DNA of 64,000 nucleotides from an uncultured Pelagibacteraceae bacterium. Lineage in GTDB: Bacteria; Pseudomonadota; Alphaproteobacteria; Pelagibacterales; AG-422-B15. A program made the translations under genes and the position numbers. The stretch spans positions 180,311 to 244,310 of the forward strand of contig CACNCV010000003.1 in the NCBI GenBank assembly GCA_902619105.1. Reading direction: 5' to 3'. This document shows, one piece after another, positions 2,745-19,570 of the stretch (positions within the stretch are counted from its first letter, which is position 1; the number at the start of each line of letters is the position of its first letter). Under the pieces are notes generated by a model, which was not told the origin of the DNA, made no database searches, and saw only the letters and a program-made list of their open reading frames with translations.

Positions 2745-3488
2745 ATGATAAGCCAAGAAAACACAGCGATAATCATCCCGGTCAGATTACAAGCGAGCAG
2801 GCTACCAAATAAGCCTTTGCTCGACATTGCTGGCAAACCAATGATCCAACATGTTTGGGAGTCAGCCATTGCTTCTGATTTGGGTCGAGTAGTGGTTGCT
2901 ACAGACAGTGATGAAATCGCCAAGTGTATTGAAAGTCTTGGGGGTGATGTATGTATGACTTCTGAAAATCATCAGACAGGTACTGATCGTATGCATGAAG
3001 CGCTTCAAGCAATTGATCCAGGTAAAATGACTCATTACATCATTAATTTACAAGGCGACTTGCCTACAATTAACTCGATGGCTTTAGAGAAAGTTTTAAA
3101 TTTATTATCATCAGAAGAAAATGAAATAGGCACACTGGTCACCCAATTTGAAAGAGAGGAAGATCTAAAGAAAGAGCAATTTGTAAAAGCAGTCTGTAAT
3201 TTATCTGGTAGTGAAACTGAATCTTATGCAGAGAATTTTGTAAGAAAACAAGGAGATTATGATTCTAAGAACCTTTTTCATCACATAGGTATTTATTCTT
3301 TTAAGAGAGATGCTCTAGAAAAATTTGTCACTTTGTCTCAAACTGATCGAGAAAAAAATGAAAAATTAGAGCAATTAAGAGCACTTGATAACAATATGAA
3401 AATAAAAATTGGTTTAATTGACTTTTTACCTCTCGGAGTTGATACTCCGGATGACTTAGAAGAAATTAGAAAGATATTAAGCAAATGA
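2745..3488 (+). CDS. kdsB: 3-deoxy-manno-octulosonate cytidylyltransferase (CMP-KDO synthetase)
   Basis: N-terminal IIPVRLQASRLPNKPLLDIAGKPMIQHV and length 247 aa. Overlaps the next gene by 4 nt. Confidence 0.9.
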   Translation: MISQENTAIIIPVRLQASRLPNKPLLDIAGKPMIQHVWESAIASDLGRVVVATDSDEIAKCIESLGGDVCMTSENHQTGTDRMHEALQAIDPGKMTHYIINLQGDLPTINSMALEKVLNLLSSEENEIGTLVTQFEREEDLKKEQFVKAVCNLSGSETESYAENFVRKQGDYDSKNLFHHIGIYSFKRDALEKFVTLSQTDREKNEKLEQLRALDNNMKIKIGLIDFLPLGVDTPDDLEEIRKILSK

Positions 3489-5243: not shown

Positions 5244-5294
5244 TAATTTATTATTTATTAAACAACATTTTATTTTCGTTATGATACAATATTT

Positions 5295-5387
5295 TGGGAG
5301 ATTGAGTAGACAAGTTATTCGCCAATCCGGTCAGGTCTGAAAAGAAGCAGCCGTAACGAAGATATTTGGGTTACGTTGATCTCCCAC
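5295..5387 (+). ncRNA. ffs: Signal recognition particle RNA (small bacterial 4.5S type)
   Basis: Contains GGTCAGGTCTGAAAAGAAGCAGCC, matching the conserved SRP domain IV core GGUCAGGUCCGGAAGGAAGCAGCC with a GNRA-like apex. Terminal helix TGGGAGAT (5295-5302) pairs with ATCTCCCA (5379-5386). It sits directly upstream of dnaX, which from memory is a common arrangement. Confidence 0.8.
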
Positions 5388-5405
5388 TAAAGATTAGTGA
5401 TTTTT

Positions 5406-11641: not shown

Positions 11642-13048
11642 TTAATCCGCGAGGACCCAAGTGTCCTTTACTCCTCCCCCTTGTGATGAATTTACTACAT
11701 ACGATCCTTTATTTAATGCAACTCTTGTTAATCCCCCTGGGCATAATTGTACTTTTTCTCCAACTAGACAGAATGGACGTAAATCAACTCGTCTTCCTGA
11801 AACCTCATTATCTATTAAAGTTGGTGAGGATGATAAGTCTAATGTTGGTTGAGCAATATATCCTCGAGGGTTACTTTTTAGTTTAGTAGAGAACTCTGAA
11901 ATTTGATCTTTAGTTGATTTAGGTCCAATTAACATTCCATAACCCCCTGAACCATCAACTTCTTTCACCACAAGTTTTTCAATATTTTCTAATACATAAG
12001 TTAATTCGTCATCTCTTTCACATCTCCATGTTTCAACATTATCTAGAATAGGTGTTTCACCAAGGTAAAATTTTATCATTTCAGGGACAAATATATAAAT
12101 AGCTTTGTCATCTGCGATACCAGCACCAGGAGCTGAGCATATATTCACACCACCTGTTTTATAAACTTGAGTGATCCCCGGGACACCAATGACTGAGTCC
12201 GGGTTATAACAAAGAGGATCTAAAAATTCGTCATCAATTCTTCGATAAACAACATCTATTTTTTTTGGTCCATCAACTGTCTTCATATAGAGCAAATCAT
12301 TTTCAACAAAAAGATCTTGTGACTCCACCATTTCAATACCCATTTGGTCGGATAAAAAAGTATGCTCGTAATATGCACTATTTAAATGACCTGGAGTTAA
12401 TAGGACAACTGTTGGTATACTGCTATCACATTTTTTTGGGGCAAGACTCATTAGCGTCTGCAATAATCTAGTAGGATAGTCATCAACTCGTAAAACACGA
12501 TTTGTGTGAAATAAATCAGGAAACATTTTCATCATGATTTCTCTATTTTCCAACATGTATGAAACACCAGATGGTGTACGACAGTTGTCTTCTAAAACAT
12601 AAAACTCATCTTTTCCTGTTCTGACTAAGTCAACACCAATTATTGGACTATAAATCTTTCTTGGAGGTGAAAAGTTGATCATAGACTGGTCATATGACGA
12701 TTTTTTATAAACAATTTCTTTTGGAATAACCCCCGCCTTAAAAATTTCACCACTATTATAAGTATCGTGAAGAAAAGCATTTAGAGCTTTTGCTCTTTGT
12801 AAAACACCTTTTTCTATCTTTGCCCATTCGTAGTTTGTAAGAATTCTTGGAATTAGGTCAAAAGGGATGATTCGTTCAGTCATATCATCATCTTTGACCG
12901 AAAAAGTAATACCAATTCTTTTAAAATGAGACTCAGCTTCAAAATTCTTTTGGCTAATGACTGTGGATGACATGGTTCTCAACCACGAATTTACTTGTAA
13001 GTAGTGCTTTCTTATTTGAGCGTCATCGCTATACATTTCATCAAACAT
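11642..13048 (-). CDS. Circularly permuted ATP-grasp (type 2) amidoligase-like protein
   Basis: About 468 aa starting MFDEMYSDD (ATG at 13048 preferred over GTG at 13054). Conserved stretches VLEDNCRTPSGVSYMLENR and VVKEVDGSGGYGMLIGP. First gene of the conserved triad. Confidence 0.85.
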   Translation of the reverse strand: MFDEMYSDDAQIRKHYLQVNSWLRTMSSTVISQKNFEAESHFKRIGITFSVKDDDMTERIIPFDLIPRILTNYEWAKIEKGVLQRAKALNAFLHDTYNSGEIFKAGVIPKEIVYKKSSYDQSMINFSPPRKIYSPIIGVDLVRTGKDEFYVLEDNCRTPSGVSYMLENREIMMKMFPDLFHTNRVLRVDDYPTRLLQTLMSLAPKKCDSSIPTVVLLTPGHLNSAYYEHTFLSDQMGIEMVESQDLFVENDLLYMKTVDGPKKIDVVYRRIDDEFLDPLCYNPDSVIGVPGITQVYKTGGVNICSAPGAGIADDKAIYIFVPEMIKFYLGETPILDNVETWRCERDDELTYVLENIEKLVVKEVDGSGGYGMLIGPKSTKDQISEFSTKLKSNPRGYIAQPTLDLSSSPTLIDNEVSGRRVDLRPFCLVGEKVQLCPGGLTRVALNKGSYVVNSSQGGGVKDTWVLAD

Positions 13049-13387
13049 GGCCACATACTAATCAAATAGCTATCAATATTAATTTTATGCCTTTGCCAAA
13101 TTGACATGTTATTCCCCTCCCGAATTCAGCAAATAATCTGTAATGAATGATCATGAAAAAAATTTTTGAGCAATCATTTAACTACTTTCTTAGAGCTTTC
13201 CCAGTAATCTTGACTGTTTACTTTCTTTTTCAAATAGCTGGAGCAATTATTTAGGTATTTATTATGTTTGGAACTAGATGGAATTTTAATCCTTCCCCCC
13301 TTAAATTGGATATAGCTTTGACCATCATGTTAATGTTGCTAATAGTATAATACCTAAATAGCTCTAAAATTGATAAATAGTTGATTT

Positions 13388-14533
13388 TTATTGGAAGTAC
13401 TTAGTGATTATAAGACTGTAAATGTCTTTAAGCTTAGTTATGTCCTCAGTTTTTACATTTTCATCAATTTGGTGTGCGGTCTCTCCAATAAGTCCAAACT
13501 CTGCTACTTCGCAGTAGTCTTTAAAAAATCTTGCATCTGATGTTCCACCTGTTGTTGTTAGTGAAGAATTCATTCCTGTAATCTCATCAACAGAACTTTT
13601 CACTATCTCTGTAAATTTACCTTTTTCAGTTAAAAATGGTTCTGCTGAATTGTTAAAAGTTATATCAACTTTATAGTCACTATTATTGATATTTTTTGAA
13701 ACAACTTCATTGATCATTGATTGAAGACTCTCTTTTGTGTGATTAATATTGTAGCGAATATTAAATATTCCAGTTGAGGTTTGTGGAACAATATTAGTCG
13801 CACCTTCACTTGACTCGATTTTAACAATTTCCATATTTGATGGCGGAAAGTCTTCTGTACCTTTATCAAGCTCTAAATTACACAGTGTATTGAGTATTGA
13901 TGTCAGAGGATTTATTGGGTTGAGAGTCCATTCTGGATAGGCAACATGACCTTGTTTCCCTGAAACTTTAATAGTCGTGGTAATACTGCCTCTTCTTCCA
14001 ATTTTAATCATTTCACCTAAATTACTTGGGCATGTTGGTTCCCCTACCAAGCAACTATCTATCTTTTCTCCATTTTTATAAATTTCTTCTAGTACTTTTC
14101 TTGTCCCATTGATTGCAGGACCTTCTTCATCATTTGTAATTAAGAGACTTATGGTGCCTTTCATCTCATTATTCTCTAGGTATTCTCTTACCGCTGAAAC
14201 AAATGCAGCTATAGCAGATTTCATATCGCTCGCACCACGGCCATATAACTTTCCATTTTTTTCAGTGGCCTCAAATGGATTTGAATTCCATGCATTTTCA
14301 TCACCAACTGGAACAACATCAGTATGACCTCCAAAACACAAATGTGGAGCACCACTACCAATTTTTGCGAATAAATTATCTACGTCAGGTGTATCAGTAT
14401 CACTAAATAAATAACGATTGCATGTAAATCCCATGTCAGTGAGCTCCTTTTGGAGTAGGTCTAAGACCCCTTCGTTATTAGGTGTAACACTTGGACAAGA
14501 AATGAGTGATTTAGTTAGTTCAACGACTTCCAT
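13388..14533 (-). CDS. dapE: Succinyl-diaminopimelate desuccinylase (M20 peptidase)
   Basis: HLCFGGHTDVVP and TNDEEG metal-site motifs. Adjacent to dapD. Confidence 0.9.
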   Translation of the reverse strand: MEVVELTKSLISCPSVTPNNEGVLDLLQKELTDMGFTCNRYLFSDTDTPDVDNLFAKIGSGAPHLCFGGHTDVVPVGDENAWNSNPFEATEKNGKLYGRGASDMKSAIAAFVSAVREYLENNEMKGTISLLITNDEEGPAINGTRKVLEEIYKNGEKIDSCLVGEPTCPSNLGEMIKIGRRGSITTTIKVSGKQGHVAYPEWTLNPINPLTSILNTLCNLELDKGTEDFPPSNMEIVKIESSEGATNIVPQTSTGIFNIRYNINHTKESLQSMINEVVSKNINNSDYKVDITFNNSAEPFLTEKGKFTEIVKSSVDEITGMNSSLTTTGGTSDARFFKDYCEVAEFGLIGETAHQIDENVKTEDITKLKDIYSLIITKYFQ

Positions 14534-17971: not shown

Positions 17972-18205
17972 TTACTTCTTTTCTCTTGGAACAGGATCGT
18001 ATCCTTCTGAACCACCTAAAAGTTTTATTGGATGACATTTTATTATTCTCTTCATACCTAAATAGGTTCCTTTAATTAAACCATACTCTTCAATTGCCTC
18101 TTTTGCATACTCAGAGCATGTTGGCATAAAACGACATGATGAGGGAAAATATGGAGAGATTAATCTTTGATATAATACTATCAGAAATATAAATATTGAT
18201 TTCAT
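17972..18205 (-). CDS. yidD: Membrane protein insertion efficiency factor YidD
   Basis: [23 protein letters not shown] signature, 77 aa. Confidence 0.9.
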
Positions 18206-19493: not shown

Positions 19494-19570
19494 GCGCCGG
19501 TGGCTCAGCTGGATAGAGCACCAGACTACGAATCTGGGGGTCGGGAGTTCGAATCTCTCCCGGCGCGCCA
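19494..19570 (+). tRNA. tRNA-Arg (anticodon ACG), CCA encoded
   Basis: Cloverleaf by eye. Acceptor GCGCCGG/CCGGCGC, anticodon stem CCAGA/TCTGG with loop CTACGAA, T arm GGGAG TTCGAAT CTCTC, 3' GCCA. Confidence 0.95.

Follow-up and report, generated by a model that had tools for sequence, protein, structure and literature searches.

A putative two-gene small-protein operon in the long gap upstream of an ATP-grasp gene triad of an uncultured Pelagibacteraceae bacterium

Two small genes in the gap between the dapE-like and ATP-grasp genes

The DNA analyzed here (the window) is a 64-kb stretch of an uncultured Pelagibacteraceae bacterium, positions 180,311 to 244,310 of contig CACNCV010000003.1 (GenBank assembly GCA_902619105.1). 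Its longest gap between genes lies between a dapE-like peptidase gene and a triad of genes encoding a circularly permuted ATP-grasp protein, an alpha-E protein and a transglutaminase. This interval very probably consists of a plus-strand operon of two small open reading frames (ORFs), smORF1 and smORF2, a 104-bp divergent control region carrying an invariant 28-nucleotide (nt) block, and a 37-bp convergent 3' gap. The operon would be transcribed divergently from the triad and convergently with the dapE-like gene.

SAR11 genomes are a textbook case of streamlining, and therefore any long "spacer" in them is expected to be functional. In a crude gene map of the window with 69 ORFs, the median intergenic gap was 2 bp, while the gap in question measured 333 bp when counted from a GTG codon at 13054 and 339 bp when counted from the conserved ATG at 13048. 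An earlier reading of the letters and their ORFs (the sequence-only reading) had singled out these 333 bp as anomalously long among short spacers and had flagged the interval as holding something functional. Both points were borne out, the latter by two conserved small genes. Its premise of a 333-bp non-coding spacer failed, as about 200 bp are plus-strand coding sequence. Once the small genes were placed, the remaining intergenic stretches were 104 bp between divergent genes (13049-13152) and 37 bp between convergent genes (13351-13387). Two conserved genes had been almost wholly missed by standard annotation in this SAR11 "spacer".

Conservation of the locus among relatives

Species-representative genomes were scanned with the ATP-grasp protein, which gave 80 loci. 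The order dapE, gap, ATP-grasp was kept in 12 Pelagibacteraceae single-cell genomes with 81-100 % ATP-grasp identity (L001, L003-L006, L008-L013 and L060), of which L006 is essentially the window's own strain. The gap was 317-343 bp long in nine of these genomes and about 750-800 bp in the other three. A metagenome scan with an alignment of smORF2 returned 15 matches among 241 million records, 14 of them with the synteny of the window. The syntenic set used below comprised 27 loci, namely the window, the 12 loci of Pelagibacteraceae single-cell genomes and the 14 loci of marine metagenomes. The conserved order was ATP-grasp (minus), smORF1 (plus), smORF2 (plus), an optional thioesterase gene (plus) and dapE (minus), and it held down to 71 % identity in DapE and 80 % in the ATP-grasp protein.

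When the gaps were aligned, conservation was found to be organized on the plus strand of the window, where two small ORFs with conserved ATG and stop codons differed mainly by synonymous changes. Between the window and L009, for example, these included AAT to AAC, CCT to CCA, TCC to TCG, CCC to CCT, AAA to AAG, TTG to TTA, GCT to GCA, TTG to CTA and ACC to ACA. The sequence-only reading had proposed aligning the spacer in relatives and weighing codon-like conservation against covariation; the former was found, on the plus strand, and the latter was not.

A gene for a 4HBT_2 thioesterase (Pfam, 138 amino acids (aa)) was co-directional with the small genes and started about 27-30 nt after smORF2 in L010, L012, L060, L081 and L083-L085. 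It was absent from the window (13351-13387) and from other strains about 99 % identical in the flanking genes. Its presence or absence between smORF2 and dapE amounts to an indel polymorphism of roughly 410 bp. Since this co-directional gene follows smORF2 in some strains, the ancestral unit may have been smORF1-smORF2-thioesterase.

Both small ORFs evolve as coding sequence

The frame of smORF2 was found in all 27 syntenic loci and was full length (28-31 aa with an ATG start) in 25 of them; that of smORF1 was intact in 22 of the 27, with TTG as the start codon in L084 and L085. In ten distinct DNA versions of smORF2, the variable sites at first, second and third codon positions numbered 10, 1 and 22; in smORF1 they numbered 14, 13 and 28. 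The ratio of nonsynonymous to synonymous differences (pN/pS) of smORF2 was 0.05-0.13 at a pS of 0.74-0.96, where synonymous sites are nearly saturated. For smORF1 it was 0.09-0.10 in near pairs and 0.31-0.52 in far pairs. Judged by these patterns of substitution, both smORFs evolve as protein-coding sequence under purifying selection.

The N-terminal part of smORF2, MFGTRWNFNPSPLK in the window, carries the conserved motif WNF[NDK]P[SP]P-x-K[LI]DIA. Translations from relatives include MFGTKWNFNPSPIKLDIALTIFLMLLVIPK and MFESSRWNFKPSPEKIDIAISIFLFLLILPK, compared with MFGTRWNFNPSPLKLDIALTIMLMLLIV in the window; for smORF1 they include MKKKIEKSFNYSLKYFPGLIVAYFIFLIFGAIL, compared with MKKIFEQSFNYFLRAFPVILTVYFLFQIAGAII. 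All three frames antisense to smORF1 contain stop codons. The sequence-only reading had mentioned in passing a hydrophobic plus-strand ORF of 35 aa at 13147-13254. This is indeed a real gene, smORF1, with a different start: the ATG at 13147 (MIMKK...) of the longer reading is not conserved, and the conserved start is at 13153.

Each product is some 30 residues long and has a single strongly hydrophobic segment. The grand average of hydropathy (GRAVY) was 0.8-1.0 for both, and the best 15-residue Kyte-Doolittle windows scored 2.2-2.9 in smORF1, smORF2 and a distant smORF2 homologue in L096. Both products may insert as single-pass membrane peptides.

Searches of Pfam, NCBIfam and PDB sequences with both peptides and their profiles returned noise only. 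For smORF1, a concatenated query against 5.8 billion clustered proteins found one unnamed 35-aa cluster of the Joint Genome Institute (JGI), and JGI/IMG gene calls for it were few and always unnamed. The exact smORF2 sequence of the window was absent from a collection of 15 billion proteins, and an exhaustive HMMER search of 1.84 billion proteins found a single 28-aa representative. No longer or fused homologue was found among the 5.8 billion or the 1.84 billion proteins.

Two separate cistrons with signs of coupling

The distance from the smORF1 stop codon to the smORF2 ATG was 6, 8 or 9 nt, depending on the lineage. Because this gap, and hence the relative frame, varies between lineages, the two ORFs are separate cistrons and not a read-through gene. 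A single gene with a read-through TAG was considered and ruled out, as the relative frames differ in L010, L011, L060 and L081. A Shine-Dalgarno (SD)-like TA[AG]GG was found at the smORF1 stop in every lineage, extended to a full AAGGAG in L013 and L084. An SD-like motif lying over a stop codon and followed by a short gap is an arrangement typical of translational coupling, and smORF2 would be translated by coupling or re-initiation after smORF1.

Control region and start of the ATP-grasp gene

The sequence ATGTTTGATGA at the ATP-grasp start was invariant in all relatives, while the GTGGCC just upstream was variable. The start of the ATP-grasp gene is most likely the ATG at 13048 rather than the GTG at 13054 chosen by the longest ORF, judging from this conservation. 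No SD sequence precedes the ATG at 13048 in any lineage.

Upstream of this start lies the conserved 28-nt block. Its specified positions were identical in 16 of 16 distinct upstream sequences, representing eight distinct versions of the block, and both N3 segments varied at all three positions. There were no indels between the block and the ATP-grasp ATG, so the distance is fixed. The block is unique in the window, where none is expected by chance. We regard it as a candidate operator or 5' element.

Closer to the gene, a -10-like hexamer read TAnnnT in all lineages (-12 to -7 from the ATG); its T, A and final T were invariant, and the 6 nt between hexamer and ATG were variable. A TAnnnT at 6 nt before the start codon suggests a leaderless or nearly leaderless ATP-grasp mRNA. 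The 28-nt block and TAnnnT would most likely act together as promoter and operator for a triad mRNA with a short leader or none, with the operator centred near -52.

Other identities of the block were tried and rejected. It is not a regulon member within the window, where there is no second copy. On either strand, neither a sigma-54 promoter nor a pho box nor a standard -35/-10 pair matched its spacings by inspection, and a consensus scan found nothing there. On the plus strand it could be read as a six-codon leader peptide (ATG-NNN-TTG-CCA-NNN-TGA, M-x-L-P-x-stop), and codon 2 of this frame is TAG in L084. The coordinates of these and other features are given in Table 1.

Table 1. Positions of the small genes, control elements and other features discussed in the text (window coordinates unless a locus is named)
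Feature	Position	Strand	Remarks
smORF1, 33 aa (MKKIFEQSFNYFLRAFPVILTVYFLFQIAGAII)	13153-13254 including stop	plus	Lys-rich N-terminus, one hydrophobic helix
smORF2, 28 aa (MFGTRWNFNPSPLKLDIALTIMLMLLIV)	13264-13350 including stop	plus	Conserved N-terminal motif, C-terminal hydrophobic helix
SD-like TAGGT	13252-13256	plus	Overlaps smORF1 stop, 7-11 nt before smORF2 ATG
Conserved ATG start of ATP-grasp gene (MFDEMY...)	13046-13048	minus	Most likely start; replaces longest-ORF GTG at 13054
Invariant 28-nt block TGTCA-N3-TGGCAA-N3-CAT-N-AAATTAA	13079-13106	minus	-58 to -31 from ATP-grasp ATG
-10-like hexamer TAGTAT (TAnnnT in all lineages)	13055-13060	minus	Exactly 6 nt upstream of ATP-grasp ATG
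Circularly permuted ATP-grasp gene, longest ORF	11642-13054	minus	Pfam CP_ATPgrasp_2 + CP_ATPgrasp_1
M20 peptidase gene (dapE-like)	13388-14533	minus	Pfam Peptidase_M20
31-codon mini-ORF of the sequence-only reading	13012-13107	minus	No gene; its opening codons are a chance reading of the 28-nt block
Inverted repeat bracketing smORF2	13248-13259 + 13349-13360		Perfect 12-nt arms; imperfect stem to about 13236-13363
Outer inverted repeat, 27 nt, 78 %	13055-13081 + 13365-13391		Marginal: 3.5 % of shuffles reach it
Glutamine riboswitch aptamers, example L015	2762-2817 + 2829-2884 (L015)		ATP-grasp ATG at 3001
smORF2-like gene overlapping 3' end of PII (PF00543) gene	553-2846 (L096); 2522-2972 (L093); 3-477 (L097)

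Observations that weigh against a two-gene operon with its own control region

Several observations count against the reading given above. smORF1 has no SD sequence and its upstream signal is weak. In one whole lineage (L013 and L089-L092) it is frameshifted or decayed while smORF2 is intact; smORF1 is therefore dispensable there. In metagenome contigs, smORF2 itself is cut short at the 3' end after 23 codons (L088) or, with its stop codon lost, runs on for nine more residues (L094). The family is also narrow, as the number of matches in the metagenome records indicates, and no stop interrupts the frame antisense to smORF2 in any of the 11 lineages examined. The proposal that both products enter the membrane is drawn from hydropathy. 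Likewise, the promoter and leaderless interpretation of the upstream region is drawn from conservation; in a sigma-70 test with hexamers at 16-18 nt spacing, no recognizable -35 accompanied TAnnnT, and the consensus scan omits TAnnnT.

Structured RNA and the glutamine riboswitch of a sister lineage

The long region upstream of the same triad has a different content in a sister lineage. Tandem aptamers of the glutamine riboswitch (glnA RNA, RF01739; 58-66 bits each) were found about 120 nt upstream of the ATP-grasp gene in 21 of 21 sister-group loci, one of which is cut by a contig end so that one aptamer is visible. This group (L015-L034 and L067) consists of single-cell genomes labelled "uncultured Alphaproteobacteria" with 73-76 % ATP-grasp identity. 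Tandem glutamine riboswitches at the equivalent position therefore show that the site upstream of the triad is a hotspot of regulation connected with nitrogen status. In the literature searched, we found no report that associates this riboswitch with the triad.

A long spacer at this position can thus be an RNA element, and the interval in the window might accordingly be a structured RNA, either a riboswitch-like 5' untranslated region (UTR) of the triad or a small RNA (sRNA), as the sequence-only reading had also considered. RNAalifold did draw a 5-bp UGUCA/UGGCA hairpin in the 28-nt block and also paired CAU..AUUAA with ATP-grasp codons 2-6. However, neither the window nor any lineage with smORF1/2 has the glutamine riboswitch, and the 28-nt block is unlike its aptamer. 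At the gathering score, a whole-window Rfam search found nothing in the interval. At E<=10, a 601-nt slice (12900-13500) gave two matches to unrelated families, with 18.2 and 9.7 bits against gathering scores of 45 and 175 and none below E=1.7. No Rfam match was obtained in the upstream regions of the six smORF lineages L009, L010, L011, L013, L060 and L084 either.

Minimum free energy (MFE) folding of the two strands showed no excess stability over shuffles (z = +0.23 and -0.47). In the RNAalifold consensus, whose energy was -5.3 kcal/mol, none of the 18 predicted pairs covaried; the 28-nt block itself is invariant, so covariation is not assessable inside it. The strongest stem in the interval is lineage-specific (see below), and about 60 % of the interval is codon-periodic on the other strand. 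The Rfam scan and de novo structure prediction that the sequence-only reading had recommended thus gave no support for a structured RNA, and with no Rfam match, no folding excess and no covariation we consider this explanation very unlikely.

Relation to the ATP-grasp triad and nitrogen context

The second alternative takes the small peptides for substrates or precursors that are made by ribosomes and modified by the adjacent ATP-grasp/transglutaminase system, which the sequence-only reading had also raised. The triad has been predicted to synthesize or modify peptides (PMC3597751, PMC6376114). The small genes adjoin it, divergently transcribed, in every locus with smORF1/2 of this type, and the conserved polar N-terminal motif of smORF2 offers T, K, N, S and D residues. 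Against this, smORF2 was present within 3 kb in just 12 of the 80 ATP-grasp genome loci and in none of the other 68, the smORF genes lie on the strand opposite to the triad, and both products are dominated by a transmembrane-like helix. A smORF2 homologue also occurs after a PII gene with no triad nearby. Adjacency is weak evidence here, since SAR11 genomes in general are highly syntenic.

Graspetides and microviridins are ribosomally synthesized and post-translationally modified peptides (RiPPs) with precursor peptides of ATP-grasp ligases, and in these systems a small ORF likewise stands beside an ATP-grasp gene. In contrast to them, the ligase family here is CP_ATPgrasp_1 + CP_ATPgrasp_2, the small genes lie on the other strand and encode hydrophobic helices, and the co-occurrence is inconsistent. 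A role as precursor peptides is accordingly very improbable.

The homologue just mentioned is distant (KKWNFNPPPEKIDIALSIFLALLILPK, 40-41 aa when read from an ATG within the gene before it), and L093, L096 and L097 have it directly after the PII gene. A gene for a secreted gamma-glutamyltranspeptidase (GGT) follows it in L096. In L097 the smORF2-like ORF is disrupted after KIDIALS by a rearrangement. Since smORF2 is kept where smORF1 decays and has a homologue beside PII, it makes up the core of the family and is not tied to the triad.

The triad itself has been linked to nitrogen in several ways. In marine metagenomes, its domains and those of urea metabolism co-vary (PMC3597751). The Anbu-type operon, reported to be induced by nitrogen starvation, consists of a circularly permuted ATP-grasp, an alpha-E, a transglutaminase and an Anbu gene (PMC6376114). 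The triad of the window has the first three of these genes in the same order; unlike that operon, it has no Anbu gene. Neither a sigma-54 promoter nor a riboswitch is present here, and smORF1/2 are not part of the operon as described. In Burkholderia cenocepacia, the DUF404/407-DUF403-transglutaminase cluster I35_5080-83 is reported to be NtrC/sigma-54-dependent (PMC5491218). A sigma-54-like GGCACG-N4-TTGCT was seen about 90-110 nt upstream of the ATP-grasp start in the Burkholderia/Caballeronia homologues (L071-L079), consistent with that dependence. Cultured SAR11 have been reported to be without PII and NtrBC (PMC3870248).

One may speculate that smORF2 defines a new small membrane-protein family tied to nitrogen status, and that the smORF operon and the 28-nt block replace the glutamine riboswitch in this SAR11 subgroup. 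This is an unlikely scenario, conceivable on purely positional evidence, namely the PII and GGT neighbours and the nitrogen or glutamine regulation of the triad elsewhere.

The strand that codes for smORF2

Another alternative places the real gene on the minus strand, as an ORF antisense to smORF2 (13251-13328, MMVKAISNLRGEGLKFHLVPNIINT) that would be co-directional with dapE and the triad. The absence of stops from this frame in the 11 lineages speaks for it, and it shares its third codon positions with smORF2. However, the frame is open because smORF2 has no Tyr, His or Gln codons, and it has no ATG in L009, L011, L013 and L093. Read in the antisense frame, pN/pS rose threefold, from 0.09 to 0.26, and the replacements doubled from 24 conservative ones (mean BLOSUM62 score +1.9) to 54 that were mostly non-conservative (mean 0.0); second codon positions would also vary more than first positions (10 vs 1). 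With no conserved start, a higher pN/pS and more and non-conservative replacements in the antisense frame, it is therefore the plus strand that codes for smORF2. Support independent of the window came from another lineage, where the smORF2 homologue is co-directional between the PII and GGT genes; in this locus (L096) the antisense ORF would sit antisense between two co-directional genes. We regard a minus-strand gene as extremely unlikely.

Octamers, C-tracts and the mini-ORF

The sequence-only reading had drawn attention to a repeated octamer, two C-tracts and a minus-strand mini-ORF, and all three were located where it placed them. The octamer AAATAGCT occurs at 13064, 13232 and 13356, and the C-tracts CCCCTCCC and CCTTCCCCCC lie at 13114-13121 and 13291-13300. 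The minus-strand ATG at 13107, at 6 nt from the first tract, opens a 31-codon ORF. What they mean is a different matter: these G-tracts (as read on the minus strand), the octamers and the mini-ORF are by-products of the smORFs and the control block or lineage-specific sequence.

Window-wide, on both strands, AAATAGCT occurred 15 times, compared with 5.5 copies expected from dinucleotide-preserving shuffles, which points to a general enrichment in this genome. Three copies in 333 bp exceed the chance expectation. All three were kept in most of the group of relatives at 98.7 % or more, in which L012 has lost two. Two copies survive in L008 (89 % ATP-grasp identity), and none is conserved beyond the closest relatives. 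Octamer 2 corresponds to smORF1 codons Q-I-A, which are L-I-F in other lineages. Octamer 3 lies just past the smORF2 stop, and octamer 1 in a variable stretch before the ATP-grasp ATG.

Of the two tracts, GGGGGGAAGG (13291-13300) is the antisense of smORF2 codons CCT TCC CCC CTT (P-S-P-L) within its most conserved motif. Tract GGGAGGGG (13114-13121) is in the variable part of the divergent region and was found only in the group at 98.7 % or more; L008 reads GGCAGAGC in its place. The sequence-only reading had named absence or variability of the G-tracts and octamers in close strains as grounds against itself. This is so for GGGAGGGG and the octamers, while the GGGGGGAAGG site consists of conserved smORF2 codons. 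"G-tracts" in AT-rich DNA can thus be mere antisense of proline and serine codons.

TnaC and ErmCL are regulatory leader peptides encoded by short upstream ORFs (uORFs) in the 5' regions of operons. The mini-ORF, which the sequence-only reading took for a possible SD-led leader or uORF of the ATP-grasp operon, is likewise short and 5' of an operon, but it is unconserved. The window and its relatives at 98.7 % or more do have it, preceded by GGGAGGGG at 6 nt from the ATG, and its first 8-9 codons overlap the truly conserved block. Yet its ATG is CTG in five lineages (L009, L010, L011, L060 and L084), a TAA stands in frame at codon 3 in the L013 lineage, and the supposed SD sequence GGGAGGGG is already replaced in L008 at 89 % ATP-grasp identity. 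Inside the block, changes come in whole 3-nt units rather than at third positions, and the mini-ORF sequence downstream of the block is unconserved. Hence there is next to no probability that the mini-ORF is a leader or regulatory uORF.

Inverted repeats and the remnant or insertion explanation

Octamers 2 and 3 lie in the extended stem of the inverted repeat that brackets smORF2, and octamer 3 overlaps its right 12-nt arm. The duplex of this repeat (-23.5 kcal/mol) was found in the window, L008 and L012 lineages only. Duplexes in L009, L011, L010, L060, L084 and L013 had -6 to -12 kcal/mol and lay at other positions. As a conserved structure, this repeat was rejected because it is lineage-specific. 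The outer inverted repeat was considered as the ends of a mobile element, such as a miniature inverted-repeat transposable element (MITE), and was rejected as well, as it is absent in L008, L009, L011 and L013.

That the interval is a decaying remnant, left by the gene of a larger membrane protein or by a small mobile insertion with inverted repeats at its ends, is most improbable: smORF1 and smORF2 do share one frame in the window with a single TAG between them, the outer repeat flanks the smORF module, and the thioesterase gene comes and goes among strains about 99 % identical, but the relative frame of the smORFs differs by lineage, the protein collections hold no longer homologue, purifying selection is strong at saturated synonymous distance, and the outer repeat is marginal in the window and missing from the four lineages just named.

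Comparison with known small membrane proteins

A two-gene small-protein operon, the preferred reading, has well-known parallels. AcrZ, KdpF, CydX, MgrB and MgtS of Escherichia coli are small single-pass membrane proteins that were missed by annotation. Like smORF1 and smORF2, proteins of this type have about 30 residues and one hydrophobic helix, are encoded in "intergenic" DNA, are rarely called, and in some cases belong to tightly coupled operons. In contrast to them, smORF1/2 show no sequence similarity to these proteins (no Pfam, NCBIfam or PDB match), form a pair of two different peptides and, as a family, are limited to one Pelagibacteraceae subgroup plus the smORF2-only relative beside the PII gene. 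CydX lies upstream of ybgC in E. coli. A CydX-like identity was considered for smORF2 and was rejected, as NCBIfam and Pfam scans gave no match. By analogy with bacterial peptides of similar size, the smORF peptides most likely would bind and modulate a larger membrane protein.

smORF1/2 are a new small-protein family of a familiar kind, overlooked conserved genes for probable membrane peptides. The finding gives the most abundant marine bacteria a new small-protein family and amends the local gene map (104 and 37 bp of intergenic DNA, with the ATP-grasp start at 13048). The small genes moreover adjoin an enigmatic nitrogen-linked ATP-grasp/alpha-E/transglutaminase system that is under tandem glutamine riboswitches in a sister lineage. 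As such, two small genes are an ordinary kind of discovery, useful to specialists and of little surprise. No study of SAR11 small proteins was found in the literature searched.

Neighbouring genes and other gaps of the window

By Pfam, the genes downstream of the gap encode CP_ATPgrasp_1/2, Alpha-E and Transglut_core domains, and a pseudouridine synthase gene (PseudoU_synth_1, truA-like) follows the triad on the other strand. Upstream of the gap are genes for Peptidase_M20, a tetrahydrodipicolinate succinyltransferase, an amino-acid kinase and YidC. The second-longest gap of the window, and the sole other one above 200 bp, is 240 bp long and lies upstream of yidC. It contains a 77-aa ORF (17972-18205, minus strand) that by inspection resembles YidD, a membrane protein insertion efficiency factor, so that this gap looks like no real spacer. 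The signal recognition particle (SRP) RNA and a tRNA (5293-5391 and 19494-19567) explain two further gaps longer than 100 bp.

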